11,911 bases of DNA, from NCBI GenBank assembly GCA_043750125.1, contig JAYVCD010000364.1:1-11911 (forward strand). Direction: 5' to 3'. Origin of the DNA: Archangiaceae bacterium (GTDB lineage: Bacteria; Myxococcota; Myxococcia; Myxococcales; Myxococcaceae). This document shows positions 1 through 11,911 of the stretch, in pieces (position 1 is the first letter of the stretch; every line of letters starts with the position of its first letter). The notes beneath the pieces were generated by a model, which worked only from the letters and a program-made list of their open reading frames with translations, did not search any database and had not been told where the DNA came from. The position numbers and the translations under genes are program-made.

Positions 1-1
1 T

Positions 2-1165
2 GCCCACAACCGGCCGATGTTTCGCAGCCAGGACTGGGCCCACTACCAGGCTGTGAACAAGCGGTTCGCCGACGCGGTGTGCTCGGAGGTCGACTCGGCG
101 GATCCGATCGTCCTCGTACAGGACTACCACTTCGCGCTCGCGCCCCGGCTGATCCGCCAGCGGCTGCCCCGCGCGACGGTGATCTCGTTCTGGCACATCC
201 CCTGGCCCAACGCCGAGCGCTTCGGAATCTGCCCGTGGCGCGACGAGCTGCTCGAGGGGCTGCTCGGCAGCAGCATCGTCGGCTTCCATACCCAGGCCGA
301 CTGCAACAACTTCATCGACGGCATCGACCGGTTCATGGAAGCCCGAATCGACCGGGAACAGAACGCCGTCGTCCACCTCAAGCGCAGGACGCTGGTCCGC
401 CCGTACCCCATTTCGATCGACTGGCCCAACCAGTGGGCCTCCCGCACTCCTCCGGCCGCCGAGTGTCGCGCACAGGTGTTCGCAGACTTGAAGTTGGCTC
501 CCGACGCCTTGCTTGGAGTCGGCGTCGATCGCCTCGACTACACCAAAGGGGTCGAAGAACGGCTGCTGGCGGTCGAGCAGTTGATCGAGCGCCACCCCGA
601 GTACCAGGGGCGGTTCAGCTTCGTGCAGCTCGCCGCTCCAAGCCGCACGGAAATCGAGCGCTACCAGCTGCTCAACGAGTCGATCGAGAAGGTGGCGGCG
701 CGGATCAATGGGCGGTTCGGCCACGGGGACTATCGGCCGATCATCCTCTTGCGCGCCCACCACGAGCCGCCGACGGTCTTCAAGTATTACCGGGCCGCCG
801 ACCTTTGCTACGTCAGCAGTCTCCACGACGGAATGAACCTGGTCGCGAAGGAGTTTGTCGCCGCGCGGGACGATGAGCGAGGAGTGTTGGTGCTCAGTCA
901 GTTCACCGGCGCCGCGCGCGAGCTGACCGAAGCCTTGATCGTCAACCCCTACGACCTCGACGAAGCCAGCGCCGCAATGGCGACGGCGCTGAACATGTCC
1001 CAGGACGAACAACAAGACCGGATGTCGGCGATGCGCGCCTTCGTCGCCGAGTTCAACATCTACCGCTGGGCGGGCCGGATGCTCGTGGACGCCGCCCGAC
1101 TGCGTCGGCGCGAAAGGCTGACCGGACGCTTGAGCGAGCACGGCCTGGGAGGCAACAACGTTTGA
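2..1165 (+). CDS. otsA: Trehalose-6-phosphate synthase (glycosyltransferase family 20), 5'-truncated by window edge
   Basis: The frame is open from base 2 (AHNRPMFR...). GT20 motifs are present: VQDYHF, FWHIPWP, GFHT, GVDRLDYTKG, SSLHDGMNLVAKEFVA, LVLSQFTGAA, VNPYD. The stop overlaps the otsB start (TTGA, 1162-1165). Confidence 0.95.
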   Translation, partial: AHNRPMFRSQDWAHYQAVNKRFADAVCSEVDSADPIVLVQDYHFALAPRLIRQRLPRATVISFWHIPWPNAERFGICPWRDELLEGLLGSSIVGFHTQADCNNFIDGIDRFMEARIDREQNAVVHLKRRTLVRPYPISIDWPNQWASRTPPAAECRAQVFADLKLAPDALLGVGVDRLDYTKGVEERLLAVEQLIERHPEYQGRFSFVQLAAPSRTEIERYQLLNESIEKVAARINGRFGHGDYRPIILLRAHHEPPTVFKYYRAADLCYVSSLHDGMNLVAKEFVAARDDERGVLVLSQFTGAARELTEALIVNPYDLDEASAAMATALNMSQDEQQDRMSAMRAFVAEFNIYRWAGRMLVDAARLRRRERLTGRLSEHGLGGNNV

Positions 1166-1917
1166 AGCACATTCTTGCGAGGGCCAATCGGGACCTGCTG
1201 GCCCGTTTCGCCCAGTCCCGGGTGCTGCTCGGCTTCGACTTCGACGGGACCCTGGCTCCGATCGTCACTGATCCCGGGAAGGCGGGGTTGCGGGCGAAGA
1301 CCAAGCGGCTGCTGGCGAAGGTGTGCACCGTGTATCCCTGCGTGGTGATTTCTGGGCGGGCTCAGGCCGACGTCATGGCGCGAATGCATGGGGTACGGAT
1401 CCTGGAAGTGGTCGGAAACCACGGCAGCGAGCCCTGGGCTTCGACCGATTCGTTGCTGGCCGACGTAGCGCGATGGCAACCGATCTTGAAGAAGTCGCTG
1501 GCCCACCTGCAGGGAGTGAAGATCGAGAACAAGCGCCTCTCGGTCGCGGTGCACTACCGACAGTCGCGCGCGAAGAAGAAGGTTAAAGCGGCGATCGCGA
1601 AGGCCGCGCGTGGGTTGGGAAAGGTCCGACTGATTGGCGGGAAGCAGGTGGTGAACATCTTGCCCGAGGGAGCTCCGCACAAGGGCACCGCGCTCGAGCG
1701 GGCGCGCACGACTCACGGCTGCGATACGGCGATCTTCGTCGGCGATGATGAAACCGATGAAGATGTCTTCACCCTGGGTCAGCCCCAGAAGCTCGTCACG
1801 GTTCGGGTCGGCCGCAAAGCCAGCTCGGCCGCCGCGTTCTGCCTGTCGGACCAGGCCGAAATTGACGACCTGCTTCGAGAGCTGCTCAGACTCAGGCGCA
1901 CCCGGGCCCAGGCCTGA
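1162..1917 (+). CDS. otsB: Trehalose-6-phosphate phosphatase (HAD superfamily IIB)
   Basis: HAD motif I FDFDGTLAP, motif II ISGR, GNHG, HYR, HKG, motif IV FVGDDETDEDVF. TTG start with GGGAGG Shine-Dalgarno at 1147-1152. Directly coupled to otsA. Confidence 0.95.
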   Translation: MKHILARANRDLLARFAQSRVLLGFDFDGTLAPIVTDPGKAGLRAKTKRLLAKVCTVYPCVVISGRAQADVMARMHGVRILEVVGNHGSEPWASTDSLLADVARWQPILKKSLAHLQGVKIENKRLSVAVHYRQSRAKKKVKAAIAKAARGLGKVRLIGGKQVVNILPEGAPHKGTALERARTTHGCDTAIFVGDDETDEDVFTLGQPQKLVTVRVGRKASSAAAFCLSDQAEIDDLLRELLRLRRTRAQA

Positions 1918-1927
1918 GGCCTGAAAG

Positions 1928-2740
1928 TCAGGCGGCGGTCACCACCGCGGGGGCTGCCGGACGCGAGTCAGCACTTCCCACTCGCGCCTTCAGCCGCTCG
2001 CGAAAGTCTTCGAACGGGAACAGGTCGACCTCGGCCGAGCTCATGCTCCCTTTTTCCGAATATTCGAACGGGTCGTCGATGTCGCGAATCAGGCGAATCA
2101 TGTAGACGAAAATCAGGGTGACGAACGGAACGAGAATCAGCTCGGCGAGGAAGCTCTTGAACTTCGCGAGCATCAACAGCGCGAGGACCAGCGCCGCCAG
2201 CGTCTCGAGCAAGGCGTAGCCGGCCGGAAGAAACCCCGTCCGCGAGATGACCTGAATTCGGGTGCAGGTGTTGCGAAGTTTCTTGAGCTCACCCAGGCCG
2301 TAGCTGGCCTGGAAGGCAAGGCCCTCGCGCTCGAGTCGCGCTATGACCGTGGCCAGCTGGCTCAGCTCGGTGCACATCAGGGCGTAGGTCGTCTTGCGCA
2401 ACAGCCAATCGCGAATGGCCTCGGTCGCTTTCAAGACCGAGCCCTTCATCCCCAGGGCCGAAAGCTGGGGCTTGGACACCGCCACCTGGTCGAGCAGGTC
2501 TTCAATCGCCTCGAGGTTGCCCGCCAGCTCTCCGGGCAGCTTTTCGCTCTCTTTGTAGTCGGCCATCGTGCCGGCGAGCATGAAGCCGATCAGGAAGATT
2601 CCGCCGGTGAGCACCAGGCCTACGTCTGAGAACTCGATCACCCCTTCGAATTTCAAGCCGTGCTCGAGAATCAATTTGAGCCCCAGCGCCGCGAAGACCA
2701 TCGGCAGCGTCGTCACCATCAATTTCCATTTCATCCACAT
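1928..2740 (-). CDS. Integral membrane protein, bestrophin-like / DUF4239-like topology (2 TM - helical soluble domain - 2 TM)
   Basis: Two N-terminal and two C-terminal hydrophobic segments flank a helical region. DIDDPF after the last TM resembles the (D/E)xxxPF motif of bestrophin-like proteins. The family call is by motif resemblance only. Confidence 0.6.
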   Translation of the reverse strand: MWMKWKLMVTTLPMVFAALGLKLILEHGLKFEGVIEFSDVGLVLTGGIFLIGFMLAGTMADYKESEKLPGELAGNLEAIEDLLDQVAVSKPQLSALGMKGSVLKATEAIRDWLLRKTTYALMCTELSQLATVIARLEREGLAFQASYGLGELKKLRNTCTRIQVISRTGFLPAGYALLETLAALVLALLMLAKFKSFLAELILVPFVTLIFVYMIRLIRDIDDPFEYSEKGSMSSAEVDLFPFEDFRERLKARVGSADSRPAAPAVVTAA

Positions 2741-2786
2741 CGCAAATCCCCTTCGACCTGGAAGCTCACCCGAGGTTTAGAGCAGG

Positions 2787-3500
2787 TTAACTCTCGATTT
2801 CGAAGTCTTTGGGTCCTTGCTGCGCGTGGTGCTTCAGGTACGCGCCGAAGCCCGCCCGGGAATCGAGCTTGAATTGCGGCAGCCGCGCCAGGGCTTCTTG
2901 CGCGAAGTGGTACTGCTCGATCACCAGCGAGGCGCGCTGAGCTCCCTCGGGCAGTTGTTGAACCGGCAAGACCTCGTGGGCCAGGTCCCCTCGAAAGTGG
3001 AGCAGGCCCCCTTCGTCCGGTCGAATGACGGCTTTGACCCGCCGCTCGCGCGAGATTTTCAGCTCTCCCCCGGCGGCTTGAGGCAGTCGCAGGTAGAGCA
3101 CCGTCACCGCTTCGGGAGTCGTTCCCGGAACACCCGCCTCTCGAGCCAGGGTGGTGTCGATGTGGCGGCCGATGGTTCCGCCTTCGCCCACCAGCAACAA
3201 ATTCAGGTACCAGGCGTTGGGCACCGCCACGGCTCGCTTTCGAAACCGTCCCCATCGGGACTGAAGTGCCCGCATCGCCGGCTCGCCCAGCACCCGCGCG
3301 AAGTAACCTTTGAGGGGCGGGAAGCGTTGCTCGATCTGTTCGCGCCCGGCCGCTTGAAAGGTCATCGCGAACCCGTGGCTGCGTTCGAATGGCCCGCTCA
3401 ACGTGCTGTGTGCGATGAAAGGCGAGCCGAGCAAAGCCCCTTGAATCAGCGCAAAACTTTCTGGGGGGAGACCGTGGCGAATGTAGGCGAATTCGGGCAT
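2787..3500 (-). CDS. 2-oxoglutarate/Fe(II)-dependent oxygenase
   Basis: HxD (GRHIDT), distal His (DLAHEV) and RxS (QRASLV), plus the VLYL...GGEL strand typical of the DSBH fold. ATG at 3500 (MPEFAY) is preferred over the track's GTG at 3536, which would leave only 11 bp to the divergent gene. Confidence 0.85.
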   Translation of the reverse strand: MPEFAYIRHGLPPESFALIQGALLGSPFIAHSTLSGPFERSHGFAMTFQAAGREQIEQRFPPLKGYFARVLGEPAMRALQSRWGRFRKRAVAVPNAWYLNLLLVGEGGTIGRHIDTTLAREAGVPGTTPEAVTVLYLRLPQAAGGELKISRERRVKAVIRPDEGGLLHFRGDLAHEVLPVQQLPEGAQRASLVIEQYHFAQEALARLPQFKLDSRAGFGAYLKHHAQQGPKDFEIES

Positions 3501-3547
3501 TTTCGGAAAACTTGCCGGTATAGGACGGTGCTTCACACTTGTAGCGC

Positions 3548-4507
3548 ATGCAACCCACCATCGATCGTGATCCGCGCGTCCGTTTCAAGCACCCCGTCCG
3601 GGTGGTCCCGATTGGAGGGCCGCCCCGGGCGTATCGGGTCCTCGCGAGCAATCTGTCGAAAGAAGGAATGTTCCTGCGGATGCCGACTCCGTTCGACGCC
3701 GGGACGAAGGTCGCGCTGTCGCTCGAGGCGGGAGGACGGGTGCTGCCGTTCGCCCAGGCCGAAGTGGTGTGGAAAGACCTGGAAGAGAGCAAAGCCCCCG
3801 GTCGCGGAGCCGGTTTTGCCGTTCGCTTCACCGGCTTTCTTCACCCCCGCGCCCATGAGCTCGTCGACTACCTCGTCGCGAACCTCGAGACTGGAAAGCC
3901 GCTGCGGCCTCCCGAACCGGTCTCACCCGGGCGAAAACGGCGGATCTGGATCGCCGCCGGCCTGGCTGCCGTGGTGCTCGGCGCAGGGGTGGTCGCGCGC
4001 GCGGTTCTGACCGGCGGGGACGAAACTCCGACCCCCGCGATCGTCGTGGCCGTGCCCCAGGCGGCTCCGCTCGTCGTCGAGGACAAGCTTGCCGCCCCGC
4101 CTCTGCTCGAGGCTCCCGAAGTCCTCGCCAGTCCGGTGCTCGCAGCGATCGTCGACGTGAAGCCTGAATCAGCGCCCAAAGTGGAAGTTCAATCCTGGAA
4201 AATTCCCTCGGGTTCGATTCGAGCGATGACCGCGAGTCTTCAAGGACCTCAACTCGAGTTGGTCTTGACGCTGGCGCCAGGCGCTTCGGTCACCCGCGCT
4301 TTTGCGCTGGGCCATCCGGACCGGGTGGCTTTTGACGTCCGCGGCGCGGTTCCGAAATTGAGCTACGCCCTCGCGGGCACAGGGGTCGTTTCAAAAGTGC
4401 GCGTCGGGAAACTCCCCCACGGCACCCGCATCGTCATCGACTTGTCCCGCCCCCCCGGTAGGGCAGTCGTCGTCTCGGGAACCACCGTCTTGGTCCCTCT
4501 CCGGTAG
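3548..4507 (+). CDS. PilZ-domain membrane protein with C-terminal AMIN-like domain
   Basis: N-terminal PilZ (NLSKEGMFL...AEVVW...GFAVRF). Basic RKRR is followed by a TM (IWIAAGLAAVVLGAGVVA) and a Pro/Ala-rich linker. The C-terminus has the AMIN-like pattern AFALGHPDRVAFDV...VSKVRVG...TRIVIDL. Confidence 0.8.
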   Translation: MQPTIDRDPRVRFKHPVRVVPIGGPPRAYRVLASNLSKEGMFLRMPTPFDAGTKVALSLEAGGRVLPFAQAEVVWKDLEESKAPGRGAGFAVRFTGFLHPRAHELVDYLVANLETGKPLRPPEPVSPGRKRRIWIAAGLAAVVLGAGVVARAVLTGGDETPTPAIVVAVPQAAPLVVEDKLAAPPLLEAPEVLASPVLAAIVDVKPESAPKVEVQSWKIPSGSIRAMTASLQGPQLELVLTLAPGASVTRAFALGHPDRVAFDVRGAVPKLSYALAGTGVVSKVRVGKLPHGTRIVIDLSRPPGRAVVVSGTTVLVPLR

Positions 4508-4557
4508 TGGACCGGGTGCTCCCGGCACCCCGTGCTCCCGGCACCCCGCGGGTCCAC
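4507..4557. repeat. REP-like palindromic element: 2x16-bp tandem repeat GTGCTCCCGGCACCCC inside a GTGGACC/GGTCCAC inverted repeat
   Basis: Exact units at 4516-4531 and 4532-4547. The first unit forms the hairpin GGGTGC-TCCCG-GCACCC (4514-4530). Outer arms are 4507-4513 and 4551-4557. Confidence 0.8.
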
Positions 4558-4605
4558 GGATCCACCGGTGCGATGGCCAGTGCGTAAGGTTCGCGCCCCG
4601 TCGCC

Positions 4606-5373
4606 GTGCAACTGTCGCTCCCCACACTCCTCTGGCTGATCCTCGTCGCGTTCGTCGCGGGAATCGTCGACGCGATCGCAGGCGGGGGAGGGCTGATCAC
4701 CGTTCCGGCGCTGCTCGCGGCCGGCCTTGATCCACACTTCGCGCTCGGCACCAACAAAGGCCAGGCGATCTTCGGTTCGTTCGCCTCGGTCTTCCGCTTC
4801 GCCCGTGCGGGCTTCGTCAATCCCACGCGGGCGAAGGTCACCTTTCCCCTCGGCGCGCTGGGAGCACTCGCGGGAGCCGCGCTGCTGTTGGTGCTCGACC
4901 GCAACGTCCTCAAGCCGCTGATCCTCGGATTGCTGGTCGCAGCCGGCGCCTTCGTGGCGATCAAGCGACCGGGCAACACCCCGTCCGGGCCGGTTCCTTC
5001 CAGGCCGTTGTTGATCGCCGGGCTGATCGCGGTGTCGATCGGCGCCTACGACGGATTCTTCGGACCGGGGACCGGGACCTTCTTGATCATCGCGTTCGTT
5101 TCGCTGCTTCGCGAGTCCCTTCCCAATGCGACCGGGGACGCGAAGGTGGTGAACTTCGCTTCCGGCCTCGCCACCGTCATCTTGATGGGCATCGCCGGAA
5201 AGGTCGTCTGGGCCATCGCCATCCCGATGGCCGCAGGTCAGTTCCTCGGAGGCCTGGTCGGTGCGTCGATCGCAATCAAGGGGGGCGCGCCCATCATCCG
5301 AGGTGTGGTGCTGTCGGTGGTGGCCGGTCTGGTGGCAAAGCTGGCGTTCGACCTGTTAACTCAAGGACCATGA
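4606..5373 (+). CDS. TauE/SafE (TSUP, DUF81) family sulfur-compound transporter, YfcA-like
   Basis: Very hydrophobic 255 aa protein. Both halves carry the family motifs: AGIVDAIAGGGGLITVPALL...ALGTNK and GAYDGFFGPGTGTFL...AKVVNFAS. Confidence 0.92.
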   Translation: MQLSLPTLLWLILVAFVAGIVDAIAGGGGLITVPALLAAGLDPHFALGTNKGQAIFGSFASVFRFARAGFVNPTRAKVTFPLGALGALAGAALLLVLDRNVLKPLILGLLVAAGAFVAIKRPGNTPSGPVPSRPLLIAGLIAVSIGAYDGFFGPGTGTFLIIAFVSLLRESLPNATGDAKVVNFASGLATVILMGIAGKVVWAIAIPMAAGQFLGGLVGASIAIKGGAPIIRGVVLSVVAGLVAKLAFDLLTQGP

Positions 5374-5600
5374 GCGTCACGATCACCTACTGCAGCGCCT
5401 GAGGGTATTTGGCCAAGGCTGCCCGTGCGGCGGCCGCATTGAAAGACGAACTCGGCGTGGAAGCCGAGTTGATCGTCGGACATTCGGGAATCTTCGAAGT
5501 GGCTGTGGACGGAAGCGTCGTCGTGGCCAAGACCCGGGCCGGGTTTCCGACGCCGGAGCAGGTGGTCGAATCGGTGGCGAAAGTCCTTCCCCGGACATGA
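5370..5600 (+). CDS. Rdx family (SelT/SelW/SelH) selenoprotein, 76 aa, Sec at codon 11 (UGA 5400-5402)
   Basis: ATG at 5370 overlaps the TauE stop (ATGA). It reads MSVTITYCSA-U-GYLAKAARAAAALKDELGVEAELIVGHSGIFEVAVDGSVVVAKTRAGFPTPEQVVESVAKVLPRT*. This is in frame with the track's 5409..5600 ORF. The CxxU motif, the GxFEV motif and the C-terminal GFP are Rdx signatures. Confidence 0.92.
5417..5435 (+). promoter_or_regulatory. Candidate bacterial SECIS element
   Basis: Stem GGCUGCC (5417-5423) / GGCGGCC (5429-5435), 7 bp with one G-U pair. The loop CGUGC has G as its second base and begins 21 nt after the UGA, consistent with the general bacterial SECIS model. Confidence 0.65.
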
Positions 5601-6571
5601 CAGTCATCGCGCGCCCACCGCTGGGCTTTCGGGGGCGCTTGCGTCGACGACTGGGCGCCGCAGTGACCGATGGCTTCTTTCGCGGTGCGGCGGGCTCGGC
5701 CCGGTTGCTGCCGATTTCCCAACCCTGGGTCCATGGAGTGGAAGTCGAGCGCGACGTCAAATACCGCGATTCGCATCTGGCCGAGCACACGCTCGACCTT
5801 TACCGGCCCCGCCAACGCAGCGGACCATTGCCGGTGGTGCTCTACATCCACGGCGGCGGCTTTCGCGTTTTGTCCAAAGACACCCACTGGGTCTTCGGGC
5901 TGGTGTTCGCGCGGCGCGGTTACCTGGTCGCGAGCATCAACTACCGACTGGCGCCGGGGCACGTCTTCCCAGCCGCAATCGAAGATGCGTGCAGCGCCTG
6001 GCTTTGGCTCTTGAAGAACGTCGCCCGGCTCGGCGGCGACCCGTCTCGAATCTTCATCGCGGGCGAGTCTGCCGGCGCCAACCTCTCGGCCGCCCTCACG
6101 CTGGCGACGACCTACCGGCGCCACGAGCCCTTCGCCCGCGAAGTGTTCGATGCCGGCGTGGTCCCTCGCGCGGTCGTGCCGGCCTGTGGCCTGTTCCAGG
6201 TCAGCAACCCCGAGCGCTTCAATCTCACCCCCAACAGCTTCTTGTGGGACCGGATCGCCGAGGTCACCGACGCCTACCTCCACGGAGCGTCCTTCGATCA
6301 CGAGCACGGGCTCGACCTCGCGGATCCGGTCGTCGCCTTCGAGCGGGGAGTAAAACCCGATCGGCCTTTGCCGCCTTTCTTCCTCCCTGCGGGAGGGTGG
6401 GACGTAATCAAGGGCGACTCGACCCGATTGGCCGACGCGCTCAAAGCCCTGGGTGGAACCGCCGAAGCCCGCCTCTACCCGCGCGGCCCTCACGCGTTTC
6501 ACGCCTTGGTCTTCACTCCCAGTGCGCTGCGGTGTTGGCGCGACACGTTCGAGTTTCTCGAAAACCTGTAG
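5597..6571 (+). CDS. Alpha/beta hydrolase, hormone-sensitive-lipase-like (family IV) esterase
   Basis: Oxyanion motif HGGGF, INYRLAP..FPAAIEDA, nucleophile GESAG, acid GGWD, catalytic His in GPHAF. ATG overlaps the selenoprotein stop (ATGA, 5597-5600). Confidence 0.93.
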   Translation: MTVIARPPLGFRGRLRRRLGAAVTDGFFRGAAGSARLLPISQPWVHGVEVERDVKYRDSHLAEHTLDLYRPRQRSGPLPVVLYIHGGGFRVLSKDTHWVFGLVFARRGYLVASINYRLAPGHVFPAAIEDACSAWLWLLKNVARLGGDPSRIFIAGESAGANLSAALTLATTYRRHEPFAREVFDAGVVPRAVVPACGLFQVSNPERFNLTPNSFLWDRIAEVTDAYLHGASFDHEHGLDLADPVVAFERGVKPDRPLPPFFLPAGGWDVIKGDSTRLADALKALGGTAEARLYPRGPHAFHALVFTPSALRCWRDTFEFLENL

Positions 6572-6611
6572 CACTCTGCGCTTCGCAATCGTTGCGAAGC
6601 GTGAGTGCTTT
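6571..6611 (+). terminator. Long hairpin directly after the hydrolase stop; probable terminator or 3' stabiliser of the tauE-selW-hydrolase operon
   Basis: GCACTC-T-GCGCTTCGCAA-TCG-TTGCGAAGCGT-GAGTGC forms about 17 bp with one bulge and one G-U pair. It is followed by only TTT. Confidence 0.65.
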
Positions 6612-6699
6612 CGGGTCGCGGTGCGCTTTTCGCGTTCATCGCAATTGCATGAAATGTCTCCCTCGTAGATGGGGCAGGAAAGCTGCCATTGTTCAAACC

Positions 6700-7340
6700 A
6701 TGCATGTCGTTCGGGTCGCGTTGTGTGCGTGGCTGGCTGTCGTTGTGTGCAGTACTGCAGCCACACAAACCGCACGGGAAGTGCCCGGTTTTGAGCTCGA
6801 GCATCTGACTTTCAATCCGTCTGCGAAGGCAAGTCTGTTGATCGGTACCGGCGACTTGCCGCCGGAAAGACAACTGCGTCTCGATCATCGCGCACTACCA
6901 GCACAACCCGCTGGTGCTCATTCAGTCCGGTGAGGGGCAGCGTTCGGTCGTGCGCAGCCGAGTCACCGCGCACCTGCTCGCGGCCTACTGAGAATGGGGA
7001 AGCCACCGCGACCTTCGAGTTCGGCTCAGACGACACCGGCGCCCACTACGAGTGCAGCCTCGACGGGAGCCCCTTCGAACCCTGCACATCCAGGCACAGC
7101 CTTCATTCGCTCACGTTGGGGACGCACACCCTCACTGTCCGCGCGGTGGACGCGGCCGGAAATCGTTCGGCTTCCACAACCTCCACCTGGGTCCAGGTCG
7201 AATCGACGGTGCCTTCGAAGCCGCAGCAACGGCTGGTCGGAGGAGGGTGCGGTTGCAGCGCGGTCGACCCGACTGCCTTGTTCGCTTGCCTCGGCCTGCT
7301 GTTCGTTGCTCGGCGCCGGCGGTCGTTCAGGCCACGCTGA
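6700..7340 (+). pseudogene. Frameshifted, chimeric surface-protein remnant: signal peptide + start of myxobacterial OmpA-family beta-barrel + Ig-like repeat + MYXO-CTERM-type tail
   Basis: Frame A (6700-6882): MHVVRVALCAWLAVVVCSTAATQ...PGFELEHLTFNPSAKASLLIGTGDLPPERQLRL. Frame B (6881-6991): SIIAHYQHNPLVLIQSGEGQRSVVRSRVTAHLLAAY*. Frame C (about 6987-7340): ATATFEFGSDDTGAHYECSLDGSPFEPCTS...GTHTLTVRAVDAAGN...LVGGGCGCSAVDPTALFACLGLLFVARRRR. Confidence 0.75.
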
Positions 7341-7359
7341 GGGAAGACGAATTGCGGGC

Positions 7360-8415
7360 TCAGGACTTCGCCGACGCCGACGGAGCTTCAGCCGGCGTCG
7401 GCTTTTCTGCCGGCGGCTTCGTCACTTTCATCCGGTTGCGGGTGGCGGCCGACTCTACGATTCGCCCGATCAGCTGGGTATAGGACAGGCCCCGTTCTTC
7501 GGCCGCCATCGCAAGCTCGCTCTCTTGCTCGAGGTAGGGGTTGGGGTTCACCTCGAGCACGAAGGCTTCACCCGTTTCTTCCGAGATTCGGAAGTCCACC
7601 CGGGCGTAGTCATTGATCTTCAGGGCCTTGTAGGCGAGCAGGGCCGATCGTTCGATGCGGGCCTGAAGATCTGCCGACAAGTCATTGGCCATGATCAACC
7701 GCGGCCCCCCCTCGATGTAGGGGCCGAATTTCACGATCCGATCGGAAACCCGGGGCTCGCCCTTGTTCCAGTCGCCCCAGTCGAGCTCGACGATCGGAAA
7801 GATCTCGGGCCGGGTCGAAGTACCGACCACCCCCACGTAGACCTCGCGGCCTTCGATGAACTCCTCGGCCAGCGCTTCGTCCGAAAACTCTTTTCGAATC
7901 TCGCGCACCCGCCGGGTCAGCTCTTCCCAGTCGGATACGACCGAATGCTTGCCGATGCCCAACGAGGCGTCCGAGCGCGACGGCTTGACGATCAGCGGGA
8001 ACTTCATCCGTCCATTCGTCTCGAAGGTCTCTCCGTCGAAGGTCGCGAAGTTGGGCGTCAATACGTCGTGGTAGCCCAGCAGCTGCTTGGTGAGGATTTT
8101 GTCCTGCGCCAACAGCAGCCCCGCGGTGCCCGAGCCGGTAAAACGAATGCGGGCCATCTCCATCAGCGCGGCGACGTTCACTTCCAGCCGGTAGTCGTCG
8201 GCGAAGGTCTCGCAGACGTTGAACACCAGGTCTGCCTGAGCCGCTTCGATCGCGGTCAACAAGTCGAAGACGCGATCGTGAACGCTGACCGTGACCGTCG
8301 TATGGCCGAGCTCCTTGAGCGCGTCGACGATGTGACCCACCACCGGATCGATAGGCTCACTCGACGGCTGGTAGTGCAGCACTGCAATCTTCAGTGAGGG
8401 AACCGTCGACGCCAT
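7360..8415 (-). CDS. D-alanine--D-alanine ligase-like ATP-grasp enzyme (non-canonical)
   Basis: ATP-grasp motifs FTGSG, QDKILTK, FPLIVKP, ASLGI, EEFIEGRE, YARVDFR, LEVNPNP. It lacks the GGxSxE and LHG motifs of housekeeping Ddl. The start is either 8415 (preferred) or 8427. Confidence 0.85.
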   Translation of the reverse strand: MASTVPSLKIAVLHYQPSSEPIDPVVGHIVDALKELGHTTVTVSVHDRVFDLLTAIEAAQADLVFNVCETFADDYRLEVNVAALMEMARIRFTGSGTAGLLLAQDKILTKQLLGYHDVLTPNFATFDGETFETNGRMKFPLIVKPSRSDASLGIGKHSVVSDWEELTRRVREIRKEFSDEALAEEFIEGREVYVGVVGTSTRPEIFPIVELDWGDWNKGEPRVSDRIVKFGPYIEGGPRLIMANDLSADLQARIERSALLAYKALKINDYARVDFRISEETGEAFVLEVNPNPYLEQESELAMAAEERGLSYTQLIGRIVESAATRNRMKVTKPPAEKPTPAEAPSASAKS

Positions 8416-8450
8416 TGCGCCGAACATAGCCCGTCACTTGCGGACTGCGT

Positions 8451-9512
8451 TCAATCCACTTCGAAGAAGCGATCGGTGTACAGGTAGTTCATCGCCAACG
8501 CAGTGAGCAGCGAGGTGAAGCGGGTCATGTACTCGCGCGCCTTGTCGCGATGAACGGTGAGATCCAGCACCGAGGTCCGCTCGAGCAGGTGATCGATCAC
8601 GCTCAACACCACCGCCCGACTCACGCCCGAGTACTGCGTCACCGCAACCACCAGGGCCTGCCGTTCGGAACGGATCAAGTTGTCTGCCCGGGTCGGTGCT
8701 GCGGTCGGATTCTCGAACAGCGTCGCGAGATCCTGGTCCAGGTGCTCTCCGAGCTGGAGGTCGACCTTCTCTTCCAGGTTCCGCAGCCGGTAGTGCTCGA
8801 GCACCGTCTCTTCCATCTGGTCCACGTCCAGGTCGTGCTCATCGACGGTCACCGGAGGCGGCAGCCGGTGGAGTCGAACCGCTGCGGCCTGCACGTACTG
8901 CAGCTTCTTCAGCGCGCCCCAATCGCGGTAGCGATGCTCCCAGTTGCCATCCGGAGTCAGCCAGACCGCAAACGTCTCGGCAAAATCTTCGTCCGGGTGT
9001 TTCTGAGCGTACCACCCCGAGATGTGAACGACGTATTTGCGCGAGAACGGCATCGGCTTGAAGTCGTCGCGGTACGGCTTGCTGTAGTCGCCGAAAAGTT
9101 TGCGCCACTCTTCAGTCTCGTAGAGCTTGAAGGCGTAGTTGAACGCGTGGCCTGCCTCGTGGCGCAGGTACATCATGATGTCCCGCTCGCTCTCGAGCCC
9201 ACCGCCCAACGCCTCTTCAATCGAATGGAGATTCGAATCGGCCAGGTAGAACGGAATCCCAATCACCGGGACGCCCGATGGGCAGCCCCACTGGTCGGAC
9301 AGGTAGCATTCCGGGCGTATCGACAGGCCCTTGGCCTCGAGCTCCAGGTAGAGCTGCTGGATGTACCGCTCGAGCGGCGTACCCGACAGGTGGAGCTTCA
9401 GATCCTTGATGCGCGCTTGCAGCAACACCGCGCTCGCCGGTGCCAAACCGTCACCGAACTGCGGCTCGGCAGGCTTTTCTCGAAAGGCGATTGCTGTTCC
9501 CGCAACAGTCAT
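8451..9512 (-). CDS. Putative zinc-binding metallopeptidase (zincin, Peptidase_Mx-like)
   Basis: HExxH (LRHEAGHA) plus downstream YAQKHPDEDFAETFAVWL, which supplies the third ligand region. ATG at 9512 (MTVAG) has a GAGG SD upstream, so it is preferred over the track's TTG at 9593. Confidence 0.85.
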   Translation of the reverse strand: MTVAGTAIAFREKPAEPQFGDGLAPASAVLLQARIKDLKLHLSGTPLERYIQQLYLELEAKGLSIRPECYLSDQWGCPSGVPVIGIPFYLADSNLHSIEEALGGGLESERDIMMYLRHEAGHAFNYAFKLYETEEWRKLFGDYSKPYRDDFKPMPFSRKYVVHISGWYAQKHPDEDFAETFAVWLTPDGNWEHRYRDWGALKKLQYVQAAAVRLHRLPPPVTVDEHDLDVDQMEETVLEHYRLRNLEEKVDLQLGEHLDQDLATLFENPTAAPTRADNLIRSERQALVVAVTQYSGVSRAVVLSVIDHLLERTSVLDLTVHRDKAREYMTRFTSLLTALAMNYLYTDRFFEVD

Positions 9513-9579
9513 TTGGCGACCTCGTTCTGGACCCGGGCAAACCATAACCGACCGGTGTGACAGTCCAACCCTCGCCATC

Positions 9580-9640
9580 GGGTTAAAATTCAAGTCGTTG
9601 AAGTTACATGTTAAACCTTCTAATTAAGGGCAAACAACGC
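9580..9640 (-). promoter_or_regulatory. AT-rich promoter region for the peptidase/ligase genes; candidate sigma70-type TTGTTT-N18-TAACAT
   Basis: This is the most AT-rich stretch in the window. On the minus strand TTGTTT is at 9637-9632 and TAACAT at 9613-9608. Inverted repeats: TTCAA-N4-TTGAA (9589-9602) and CCTT-N6-AAGG (9616-9629). Confidence 0.45.
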
Positions 9641-9652
9641 GCAGCGTCATGG

Positions 9653-11218
9653 CTACTCAAAGGCCTGAATGTCGTCGTCTTTCTTCTTCTTTGGGCTCGG
9701 CGCAGTAGCTGGCTTTTTGGCAGCCGAGAGCTCGATTTCGAACCCTTCGTTCTGCGAAATCCGAAAGGTCCGCGTGACGGGCAGGAAGCCCGCAAGCTCG
9801 AAGGTCAACGCGTGCGGCTCGTCGATCGTCCACTTCCTTTCCAGCGGAGTCTTCCCCAGCACGCTCTGGCCTTCGACGACCGACGCCCCTGCCGGCCGCG
9901 TCTTGAGCGAAACCGTCACCAGCCCATCGGGATGCTCGACCCCCGCGGCCTCGACGGGCCGAGCGACGACTGAAGGCAACGGCGGACTCTCGGCGCGACG
10001 ACTGAGCGTGAAATATGCTCCCCCGGCCACGGCAGCAACCGTTGCGGCAGCTCCGATCAACCACAGCGGCAACTTCGAAGTCGCCGCAGGCTTCATCGGC
10101 TCGGCTCGAGCCATCTTGAGACTCGGAATCTCCGGAGCGGTTTCTCTGTGATCCACCGGTACCACCTGGGCGGGAAGCGGGCGCGACAGCCGGCTTCCGA
10201 CGATCACCTTCGAGCTCTTGCCCATCGACCGACTGCCTTTCTTCCCCGAGCCAGACTGCGAGCTGCTGCCGGGATCCTTCGTGCTGTCTTCACGCTTGGT
10301 GCCGGTCGGAAGCGCGTCGAGCACGTCGTCCGGCTCGCCTTCCATCGCCGCGTTCAGGTCGGCCAACAGCTCTGCGACATTTTGGTAACGATCTTCTTTC
10401 TCGCGAGCCAGCCCCTTGAGCAGGAACTCGTCAATCTTCCGCGGCATCGGGGCGCCCTGCCGAATCGTGCCCACCGCCGGGACCGTCTTGGTCAGCGCCG
10501 CGGTGAGCGCCTTGCGCACGGTGTTGGCCCCGAACGGGGAGGTGCCGGTGAGCATGAAGAACAAGACGCCGGTCAGGGAATACAGATCGCTGCGCTGATC
10601 GACCAGCTCGCCGCCTGCCTGCTCGGGCGGCATGTATTGAGGCGTCCCCAACACCTGCCCGGTGGAAGTCAGCTGCTCTTCGTCTTCCTGCTCAAGCACC
10701 TTGACCAGCCCAAAGTCGAGCACCTTGACGTACTCGTGCCCGTCGACCTGGCTGATCATGATGTTCTGCGGTTTCACGTCGCGGTGAACGACGTTCTGGT
10801 TGTGGGCGTGCTGCAGGCCCAACCCCGCCTGCTCGATGATCGCCGCCGCCCGGCGCAGGGACATCGGGCCCTCGCGCTTGACCTGCTGGCGCAGCGATTC
10901 GCCCTCGATCAGCTCCATCACGAAGTAACAGGTGCCATCGACCGCCCGGCCGAAGTCATAGATGGTGATGATGTTCGGGTGACGCAGCTTGCTGGCCAGC
11001 TCGGCTTCGCGCTTGAACCGCTCGAAGAAGGTCGGCGCCATCGCCAGCTGGGGGTGCAGCGTCTTCACCGCCACCGGCCGCTGCATCGACGTCTGCATCC
11101 CTCCAAAGACCAGTCCCATGCCCCCCTGGCCCAGGACGGTGTCCAGCCGATAACGCCCGTCGAGCGTTTTTCCGAGGTAGTCGGCGGCATTCACCGTTTC
11201 GATCGCGTCGCCAGCCAT
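9653..11218 (-). CDS. Membrane-anchored Hanks-type Ser/Thr protein kinase with C-terminal PEGA-like domain
   Basis: Kinase motifs LGQGGMG, VAVK, HRDVKPQN, DFG, GTPQYMPPE, DLYS. These are followed by a Ser/Gly/Lys-rich linker, a TM (LWLIGAAATVAAVAGGAYF) and the PEGA-like VSLKTRPAGASVV...LGKTPL...FELAGF. Confidence 0.93.
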   Translation of the reverse strand: MAGDAIETVNAADYLGKTLDGRYRLDTVLGQGGMGLVFGGMQTSMQRPVAVKTLHPQLAMAPTFFERFKREAELASKLRHPNIITIYDFGRAVDGTCYFVMELIEGESLRQQVKREGPMSLRRAAAIIEQAGLGLQHAHNQNVVHRDVKPQNIMISQVDGHEYVKVLDFGLVKVLEQEDEEQLTSTGQVLGTPQYMPPEQAGGELVDQRSDLYSLTGVLFFMLTGTSPFGANTVRKALTAALTKTVPAVGTIRQGAPMPRKIDEFLLKGLAREKEDRYQNVAELLADLNAAMEGEPDDVLDALPTGTKREDSTKDPGSSSQSGSGKKGSRSMGKSSKVIVGSRLSRPLPAQVVPVDHRETAPEIPSLKMARAEPMKPAATSKLPLWLIGAAATVAAVAGGAYFTLSRRAESPPLPSVVARPVEAAGVEHPDGLVTVSLKTRPAGASVVEGQSVLGKTPLERKWTIDEPHALTFELAGFLPVTRTFRISQNEGFEIELSAAKKPATAPSPKKKKDDDIQAFE

Positions 11219-11257
11219 TGATTTCCACTATACGGGAGCCGGTCCAGCGAGCACACC

Positions 11258-11911
11258 GTGAGTCTCCTCATCGTTCAAGACTTGTCGTTGTCCTACGGCA
11301 AGAAGGCACTCTTCGAGCACACCAGCTTCACCATCGGTCCAACCGATCGGATCGGGCTGGTGGGGGCCAACGGCACCGGGAAGTCGACCCTGCTGAAGAT
11401 CCTCGTCGGGCAGGTCACCGCCGACAGCGGCATCCTCACCTGGAGGCGCCGCGCCCGGTGGGGTTACCTGCCGCAAGACCTGTCGGCGCTGCCCGAAGGC
11501 TCGCTGGTCGACTCGGTGCTGGCGACGGTGCCCGGGCGCGACACGCTGGAAGAGCGGCTGCGGGTGACCGAAGCCTCGCTGTCGGAGGCGAAGGAAGAGG
11601 CCGAACAGCTCGAGCTGGCCCAGACGCTGGCCGAGCTTCATGAAGAGGCGGACCACTTCGACGAGCACTATGGCCGTCACCGGGCCGAGGCGATCCTCGC
11701 CGGGCTGGGCTTCAAGCAAACCCAGTTCGAGCGGCCGACCGACACCTTCAGCGGCGGCTGGAGAATGCGCGCCGCCCTCGCCGGGCTGCTGCTGCAGGAT
11801 CCCGATCTGCTGCTGCTGGACGAGCCGACCAACCACCTGGACCTTCCGACGCTGGCCTGGTTCGACGCGTTCCTTCGCCGCTCGCGCAAGGCGCTGGTGC
11901 TGATCAGCCAC
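11258..11911 (+). CDS. ABC-F family ATPase (ribosome-associated), 3'-truncated by window edge; absent from ORF track
   Basis: GTG at 11258 opens MSLLIVQDLSLSYGKKALF...IGLVGANGTGKSTLLK (Walker A), GYLPQD (Q-loop), a helical arm, FSGGWRMRAALA (signature), LLLLDEPTNHLD (Walker B) and LISH (H-loop). There is no TM segment and no stop before the window end. Confidence 0.93.
   Translation, partial: MSLLIVQDLSLSYGKKALFEHTSFTIGPTDRIGLVGANGTGKSTLLKILVGQVTADSGILTWRRRARWGYLPQDLSALPEGSLVDSVLATVPGRDTLEERLRVTEASLSEAKEEAEQLELAQTLAELHEEADHFDEHYGRHRAEAILAGLGFKQTQFERPTDTFSGGWRMRAALAGLLLQDPDLLLLDEPTNHLDLPTLAWFDAFLRRSRKALVLISH

Follow-up and report, generated by a model that had tools for sequence, protein, structure and literature searches.

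Does the UGA codon that interrupts a short reading frame in the DNA of an Archangiaceae bacterium end translation, or is it read as selenocysteine (Sec)? The codon lies on contig JAYVCD010000364.1 (assembly GCA_043750125.1), whose positions 1 to 11,911 on the forward strand are the stretch analysed here and are called the window throughout, and the frame around it, at 5370-5600, had been proposed from the letters alone to be a hidden SelW-type selenoprotein gene (the original prediction). This frame is very probably a genuine selenoprotein gene, encoding a 76-residue SelW-like (Rdx) thioredoxin-fold protein with Sec at codon 11. The case is carried by the frame itself, by the protein family and the predicted fold, by the correspondence between the TGA and cysteine (Cys) codons in relatives, by purifying selection across the UGA, and by a conserved hairpin that complies with the model for bacterial Sec insertion sequences (SECIS).

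The read-through frame starts with ATG at 5370-5372 and ends with TGA at 5598-5600, giving a product of 76 amino acids (aa) with the N-terminal sequence M S V T I T Y C S A, UGA, G Y L A K. The start codon, the codons TAC TGC AGC GCC TGA GGG TAT (Y-C-S-A-U-G-Y) and the continuation in frame into a 63-aa open reading frame (ORF) at 5409 had all been described in the original prediction and were confirmed in the sequence. Just upstream, an AAGGA may act as the Shine-Dalgarno element, as judged from its sequence. The window has a G+C content of 64%, and TGA is the ordinary stop in six of its nine confidently assigned genes, the selW-like gene's own stop included, which rules out a general reassignment of UGA (codes 4 or 25).

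Both family models recognize the read-through product along nearly their whole length. The Pfam Rdx profile (PF10262, cut-off 22.6 bits) matches it with 49.9 bits over positions 2-73 of 74, up from 25.1 bits for the 63-aa ORF, which is still above the cut-off, and the rise is due to the 13 N-terminal residues gained. The NCBIfam model TIGR02174, "CXXU_selWTH", gives 45.4 bits against a cut-off of 34.2 and covers profile positions 1-73 of 74, while the Campylobacterota equivalog NF041051, SelTWH_Campy, gives 59.3 bits, below its cut-off of 88, so the protein is related to that subtype without being a member of it. Alignment to the Rdx/SelW hidden Markov model (HMM), a check suggested beforehand, thus yielded a full-length match, with U aligned to the Cys of Cys-form homologues. 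Standard gene callers cut these first 13 residues from the SelW-like protein, and the active site is lost with them. Among 64 aligned sequences, C8 and the U/C column are invariant. A GxFE(I/V)-type motif in strand β3 is a hallmark of the Rdx family; it had been expected here and is present as GIFEV, with G40, I41 and V44 invariant and F42 and E43 at least 90% conserved.

From the 64-row alignment, AlphaFold2 produced a model with a mean predicted local distance difference test score of 88.8 and a predicted template modelling score of 0.74. The predicted fold is thioredoxin-like, β-α-β-β-β-α, with β1 at residues 3-8, α1 at 14-28, β2 at 32-37, β3 at 42-46, β4 at 49-53 and α2 at 62-72, and C8-x-x-U11 is placed between β1 and α1. 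When this model was compared with the PDB by Foldseek, the ten best matches were chains of the bacterial SelW-related proteins 2fa8, 3dex, 2ojl, 2obk and 2oka (TMq 0.84-0.87), followed by MIEN1 (2ljk), mouse SelW (2npb) and then thioredoxins. A search of PDB sequences agreed with this, with MIEN1 2ljk (1.1e-8) as its best hit and Atu0228 2fa8 (1.2e-6) among the others.

Relatives of the gene show how widely its UGA is shared. A protein database search gave 14 homologues, 13 of which start 3' of the CxxU region and do so at varying positions, a variation that points to truncation by gene callers; the sole full-length homologue among them, P0005, carries the motif CKPC. Three of the short entries are named "selenoprotein W-related protein" by JGI and one "predicted Rdx family selenoprotein". 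A genome scan, restricted to one genome per GTDB species, gave 106 pattern matches that were reduced to 68 loci, mostly in metagenome-assembled genomes (MAGs) that bear the label Myxococcaceae, Archangiaceae or Myxococcota; a few others go under Zixiibacteriota, Chloroflexota, Desulfatibacillum or Sulfurovum, and one comes from Nocardia anaemiae. The closest relatives are from MAGs with an Archangiaceae or Myxococcaceae label, in agreement with the earlier description of a myxobacterium-like organism. Although the scan reported its loci in full, it hit no genome of a cultured Myxococcus, Corallococcus, Cystobacter or Stigmatella, and, as all Myxococcota-labelled matches are MAGs, the gene seems to be restricted to uncultured lineages. 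At the place of the UGA, the aligned codon is TGA in 63 of the 68 loci and Cys in four (L007, L063, L065 and L067), L066 being unscored because it is cut by a contig end; the original prediction had named close homologues that all carry TGC or TGT as the pattern that would speak against it.

Upstream of the UGA, the 64 Sec-form sequences vary mainly by synonymous changes. Tyrosine is encoded by TAC in 57 and TAT in 7, and Cys by TGC in 56 and TGT in 8; isoleucine is encoded by ATC in 53 and ATT in 9, with valine GTC in 2, and threonine by ACC in 52, ACG in 10 and ACA in 1, with lysine AAA in 1. Both sides of the UGA are therefore translated in one frame, and a private nonsense mutation or sequencing error is excluded. 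An in-frame UGA that aligns with Cys of homologues and is flanked on both sides by conserved protein sequence is the pattern by which selenoproteins are recognized, and it is the pattern found here.

Some of these relatives have peculiarities of their own. The Cys form of Nocardia anaemiae (L007) clusters with P0005 within the myxobacterial part of the tree, a placement that hints at horizontal transfer in a tree that is poorly resolved. In three loci, a second Rdx gene with the Cys motif CVTC follows about 370 nucleotides (nt) downstream of the Sec-form gene (L004, about 10370-10600; L008, 10164-10607; L011, about 1925-2150). In L054 (8165-9157), the Rdx frame stays open for about 330 codons without a stop, which may reflect a fusion or a stop that is absent from the MAG, and this locus was left out of the alignment (A3).

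The hairpin that follows the UGA has 7 base pairs (bp), one of them G-U, and a minimum free energy of -12.3 kcal/mol. A 7-bp hairpin with a G-containing loop 21 nt after the UGA had been noticed at the outset, and this distance holds for the start of the loop, the stem starting at 14 nt. According to the review PMC13188914, a bacterial SECIS has 3-9 nt in its apical loop and 4-16 bp in its upper stem; one of the first two loop positions is a G, usually with G or U after it; the distance from UGA to loop is 16-37 nt; and the minimum free energy is -7.5 kcal/mol or lower. With a loop of 5 nt, a stem of 7 bp, a spacing of 21 nt and -12.3 kcal/mol, the hairpin in the window lies within all of these bounds.

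Its conservation among relatives, whose lack had also been named as a possible objection, is complete in register: all 64 Sec-form sequences can be aligned over the 54 nt surrounding the UGA with no gap, and the hairpin occupies the same place in each. Pairs were counted for this one helix, alignment columns 24-30 with 36-42, over the 58 distinct rows, and standard pairs occupy 88.7% of the cells. Shuffled columns gave 83.5 ± 0.7%, with none of 500 shuffles reaching the observed value, and sliding the 3' arm by 1-3 columns left only 23-67% paired. The pair between columns 27 and 39 is C-G in 32 rows, U-A in 19 and U-G in 7, and is never unpaired, the window itself having the U-G intermediate; it joins the third positions of two alanine codons and is free of protein constraint because both positions are synonymous. 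The neighbouring pair 28-38 is G-C in 30 rows, U-A in 4 and U-G in 1.

In the loop, the G in column 32 never varies, and the base after it is U or G in all 64 sequences. The arginine codon located there is CGT in 41 and CGG in 17 of 58 cases and never CGC, while across the nine window genes CGT makes up 6.6% of arginine codons and CGC 39.5%. A rare codon thus appears to be held at the loop, as would be expected if the loop must read G and then U or G. The tandem Cys paralogues of L004, L008 and L011 serve as a negative control, as they encode a nearly identical peptide at this place (ATRAAD and similar) and retain just 2, 4 and 2 of the 7 pairs, respectively. Moreover, when all 317 TGA triplets of the window are taken, on both strands and in any frame, only three are followed by a hairpin of at least 7 bp and -12 kcal/mol or lower, the selW-like site among them. 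The features of the gene and its two neighbours are listed in Table 1.

Table 1. Positions of the SelW-like gene, its elements and the adjoining genes in the window.
Feature	Position	Strand	Basis
SelW-like (Rdx family) coding sequence, 76 codons + TGA stop, probable Sec-UGA at codon 11	5370..5600	+	translation, HMM, fold
Probable Sec-encoding UGA	5400..5402	+	TGA at aligned codon in 63/68 related loci, Cys in 4
CxxU redox motif, TGC AGC GCC TGA = C8 S9 A10 U11	5391..5402	+	frame translation, alignment
Shortened 63-aa ORF, TTG start, without CxxU motif	5409..5600	+	mechanical stop-to-stop ORF list
AAGGA, Shine-Dalgarno-like, 2 nt before ATG 5370	5363..5367	+	sequence reading
Bacterial SECIS hairpin, stem 5417-5423 / 5429-5435, apical loop CGUGC 5424-5428	5417..5435	+	fold + alignment
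GIFEV motif, G40-V44, strand β3	5487..5501	+	alignment + model
TauE/SafE (TSUP-type) membrane protein gene	4606..5373	+	Pfam TauE 148.6 bits
Abhydrolase_3, hormone-sensitive-lipase-type esterase gene	5597..6571	+	Pfam 129.4 bits

In one subclade of eight loci (L033, L036, L037, L043, L044, L045, L047 and L048), the UGA is itself part of a second, 6-bp hairpin, which spans the first 17 nt counted from the UGA and adjoins the SECIS stem on its 5' side; the window is without it.

Several results weigh against a SECIS at this site, or against Sec at the codon. In 23 of the 58 distinct rows, pair 28-38 is not a standard one, mostly because of an A·C mismatch, which is evidently tolerated. The Cys forms L063 and L065 (Chloroflexota MAGs, about 10042-10060) keep 5-6 of the 7 pairs, which could be a coincidence or a fossil SECIS left after a change from Sec to Cys. 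Nine of the 64 hairpins, folded on their own, have an energy above -7.5 kcal/mol, 13 of the 317 TGA triplets of the window have a model-compliant hairpin of -7.5 kcal/mol or lower, and the 66-nt fold around the UGA is no more stable than its shuffles (z = -0.33), a kind of single-sequence significance that is uninformative in G+C-rich coding DNA. Because of these last two values the hairpin alone is weak evidence, and it is the comparative data that carry the case. RNAalifold, run on the 64 sequences, keeps 4 of the 7 pairs at -2.47 kcal/mol, the loss being due to the A·C column and to variable basal pairs. A phylogeny-aware test of covariation found 3 independent pairs on starred branches, with a sign-test p of at least 0.5, and is underpowered; as these pairs are few and 34 of the 61 inner branches of the 68-column protein tree are unresolved, covariation is given here as counts and not as a probability. 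An Rfam scan of 5200-5700 with E up to 10 found no matching family, a null that says nothing either way, as Rfam is not known to hold a general bacterial SECIS model. There is no tRNA and no sel gene within the window, no tRNA-Sec in any of the 68 loci, and no SelA, SelB or SelD among 73 ORFs around 14 representative loci, absences that at the level of single loci are uninformative about whole genomes. Additionally, the review PMC13188914 files the prokaryotic SelW-like proteins under the heading "predicted with high confidence", apart from the families that precede that heading.

The lineage appears competent for Sec decoding, as judged from cultured members such as Myxococcaceae and Archangiaceae. 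Table S1 of PMC5029168 marks as positive for SelD, SelA and SelB five Myxococcus entries, three Anaeromyxobacter entries, Corallococcus coralloides DSM 2259, Cystobacter fuscus DSM 2262, Stigmatella aurantiaca DW4/3-1 and Haliangium ochraceum, and Sorangium cellulosum as negative. Table S2 of the same source gives 1-12 selenoproteins in these organisms, with 1-3 in cultured Myxococcaceae, and 11 are given for Anaeromyxobacter dehalogenans in PMC1794560. The source organism of the window would be expected to possess SelA, SelB, SelC and SelD as well.

The TGA is a single base away from TGC or TGT and Cys forms of the gene do exist (L007, L063, L065, L067 and P0005), which would fit a Cys-form Rdx gene struck by a nonsense mutation or a sequencing error, yielding nothing functional or only the 63-aa piece. 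This is contradicted by the same TGA in 63 of the 68 independent loci, by residues that are conserved with synonymous variation on both sides of it and by the conserved hairpin 3' of it, because a nonsense mutation would not be common to so many loci and be preserved there, and the probability left to such a lesion is negligible. The true product could also be the short protein that starts at TTG 5409, with 5370-5408 untranslated or forming a separate 10-codon leader whose conservation would be regulatory; it is the form made by gene callers, 13 of the 14 database homologues are deposited as such, and it still passes the Pfam cut-off (25.1 versus 22.6 bits). Nevertheless, the 10 upstream codons supply strand β1 and the family-defining CxxC/U motif and add 25 bits, Cys-form homologues run uninterrupted through this region, and the predicted fold loses β1 (3-8) and the redox motif when residues 1-13 are removed. 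The start varies among the entries, as expected of caller artefacts, and a genuine short product is scarcely credible.

Decoding of the UGA as Cys or tryptophan, by a suppressor tRNA or an unusual one whose anticodon is UCA, whether at all times or under a shortage of selenium, would equally keep the frame open. Recoding of UGA to Cys by unusual tRNAs occurs in some uncultured bacteria, and the homologues that bear Cys at this site are functional members of the family. Nevertheless, TGA ends six of the nine window genes, the hairpin fits a SelB-type SECIS in its spacing, its loop size and its G-U/G loop motif, and cultured relatives carry SelA, SelB and SelD, so that decoding as Cys or tryptophan is regarded as very unlikely. 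The proposal that this is a real 76-aa selenoprotein which gene callers truncate is favoured by the HMM matches, by the TGA in 63 of 68 loci and by the hairpin in 64 of 64 sequences, and it very probably holds.

If the UGA is decoded as Sec, insertion would follow the established bacterial Sec pathway, from which these steps are taken. SelD would provide selenophosphate, with which SelA would convert Ser-tRNA(Sec) into Sec-tRNA(Sec), and the complex of SelB, GTP and Sec-tRNA(Sec) would be tethered by the hairpin at 5417-5435, with its apical loop 21 nt downstream, and would compete with release factor 2 at UGA 5400-5402, bringing Sec to the A site of the ribosome. The protein made would be a small cytoplasmic thiol/selenol oxidoreductase, in which Sec11, in the loop before helix 1, would be the nucleophile that attacks the substrate and Cys8, at the end of strand 1, the resolving residue that forms a reversible selenenylsulfide with Sec11. 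A redox reading of the CxxU motif is given for the SelW-like family in PMC1088965. The role of the window protein is possibly tied to a sulfur or selenium oxyanion moved by the TauE-type permease encoded next to it.

Among known systems, the gene is closest to the bacterial SelW-like family (PF10262/TIGR02174), with which it shares the N-terminal CxxU, the small size and a SECIS located inside the gene, 3' of the UGA. It differs from that family in that its clade was found here only in uncultured Myxococcota-labelled MAGs and in that it sits in a TauE-SelW-esterase array. The solved bacterial Rdx proteins (Atu0228 2FA8, SAV_2001 3DEX, 2OJL, 2OBK, 2OKA and 2P0G) have the same predicted fold (TMq 0.80-0.87, root-mean-square deviation 1.4-2.8 Å over 76-80 columns) and sequences that can be aligned with it; they are longer, at about 103-108 aa versus 76, and their entry titles carry no assigned biochemical function. 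All six are Cys-containing and presumably CxxC forms. Mammalian SelW (2NPB) and MIEN1/C17orf37 (2LJK) belong to the same Rdx family with its thioredoxin-like fold, and match with TMq 0.63 for 2npb and 0.73 for 2ljk at an identity of only 26-30%. Eukaryotic SelW uses a SECIS located within its 3' untranslated region together with SBP2. In the window gene, by contrast, the SECIS lies within the ORF, and the locations of eukaryotic and bacterial SECIS are set against each other in the legend to Figure 7 of PMC1088965. Compared with a consensus of the bSECISearch type, the C and C at the two ends of the loop in the window cannot form the optional N1-N2 pair, and many relatives carry the A·C stem mismatch.

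SelW-like CxxU selenoproteins of bacteria have been known since about 2004, and the window gene is an ordinary member. PMC1088965 describes the SelW-like family as having, with 48 genes, more members in the Sargasso Sea data than any other selenoprotein family; PMC1794560 reports members in Desulfotalea, Desulfotomaculum and Symbiobacterium; Table S3 of PMC5029168 (2016) counts them in 35 sequenced bacteria; and a table in the 2026 review PMC13188914 lists the family with PF10262 and the CxxU motif. Every family criterion examined speaks for membership, so the gene is an unsurprising addition to a known family. Literature joining selenocysteine, Myxococcus, selB and selenoprotein was looked for and none was found, and neither 'SelW' nor 'Myxococc' occurs in the main text of the BSepDB paper (PMC13326102).

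For annotation, the active site is lost both in the mechanical ORF call and in 13 of the 14 deposited homologues, a systematic loss that calls for selenoprotein-aware gene calling in Myxococcota-like MAGs. For biology, at least 60 Sec-form SelW-like genes, forming a clade, are added in uncultured Myxococcota-labelled genomes, which implies Sec decoding in those organisms and changes nothing in what is known of Sec decoding or of the Rdx family. The compact and conserved SECIS, with its natural variants, could serve as a test case for the recognition of SECIS by SelB in a high-G+C lineage, the informative variants being the C-G/U-G/U-A series at one pair, the tolerated A·C, and a loop that reads CGU or CGG and never CGC. 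The practical value thus lies in the corrected annotation and in a clean natural series of SECIS variants.

The gene is packed between two others. The stop TGA of the TauE gene overlaps the selW start in the ATGA at 5370-5373, and the esterase ATG overlaps the selW stop in the ATGA at 5597-5600. These 4-nt overlaps at both junctions suggest translational coupling, and termination at the Sec-UGA would therefore also lower the translation of the esterase. A promoter and terminator scan of 4300-7000 found none between TauE, selW and the esterase, which fits weakly with one transcript. All NCBIfam matches of the esterase are below cut-off. Across the window, the order is OtsA, OtsB, two conserved ORFs that match no family, a PilZ/AMIN protein, TauE, SelW and the esterase, followed by a D-Ala-D-Ala-ligase-like ATP-grasp protein (-), a Peptidase_Mx protein (-), a Ser/Thr kinase with PEGA (-) and an ABC ATPase.

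Of the 68 loci, 31 have TauE immediately upstream of their selW homologue, and tblastn detected the esterase in 25, downstream of selW in each of these. About 30 loci share the gene order of the whole block from PilZ to ABC, which is due to shared ancestry as much as to function. In a second set of Myxococcota loci, the gene follows rsfS-rlmH, and the link to TauE is therefore not universal. By tblastn coordinates, only the nearest relatives look as tightly packed as the window: in L001-L003 the end of the TauE alignment is close to the start of selW, and in L003 the alignment of the esterase begins at the same offset as in the window. The other syntenic loci mostly have a gap of about 80-110 nt upstream in the same coordinates.

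It is conceivable, if unlikely, that the TauE-SelW-esterase array forms a selenium-gated unit, in which translation of the esterase would be coupled to Sec insertion and SelW would act together with the TauE/TSUP permease on an oxyanion such as sulfite or selenite. The output of the esterase would then track the selenium supply, and the functionally orphan bacterial SelW-like family would gain its first physiological context. No literature link between TauE and selenoprotein W was found, and among the papers listed for TauE with selenocysteine nothing was relevant by title or abstract.

Other ORFs of the window call for brief mention. Those at 1928-2740 (-) and 2731-3831 (-) have no Pfam family, and tblastn finds them conserved in 15 and 18 related loci, respectively, within the same syntenic block; in these loci, the match to 2731-3831 overlaps a match to the PilZ gene on the opposite strand. 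Two long ORFs run antisense to assigned genes, one of 467 aa at 6994-8397 (+) opposite the Ddl-like gene and one of 462 aa at 5387-6775 (-) opposite the esterase and selW. The ORF at 6994-8397 has no Pfam family, and the tblastn matches that make it seem conserved in 26 loci reflect the Ddl-like gene on the opposite strand. Both are taken to be shadow ORFs typical of DNA with 64% G+C.

More distant loci place the gene in other company. In two Zixiibacteriota-like loci (L051, 9574-12514; L054, 7751-10750), the Sec-form gene comes after an ArsR-family regulator and before a UbiE/COQ5-type S-adenosylmethionine methyltransferase, with a DsbD-type membrane protein also between them in L051, and in a Dehalococcoidia locus (L053, 1381-3541) a DsbD_2 protein lies downstream. 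These settings look like an arsenic or redox context, and the UbiE/COQ5-type arsenite methyltransferase is listed in Table S3 of PMC5029168 as a selenoprotein family of its own. Lastly, in L018 (7682-9363), a tRNA-Pro (8015-8089) and a phage-type integrase (8029-9363, -) are found directly downstream of the selW homologue, an arrangement that suggests an integration site beside the gene.

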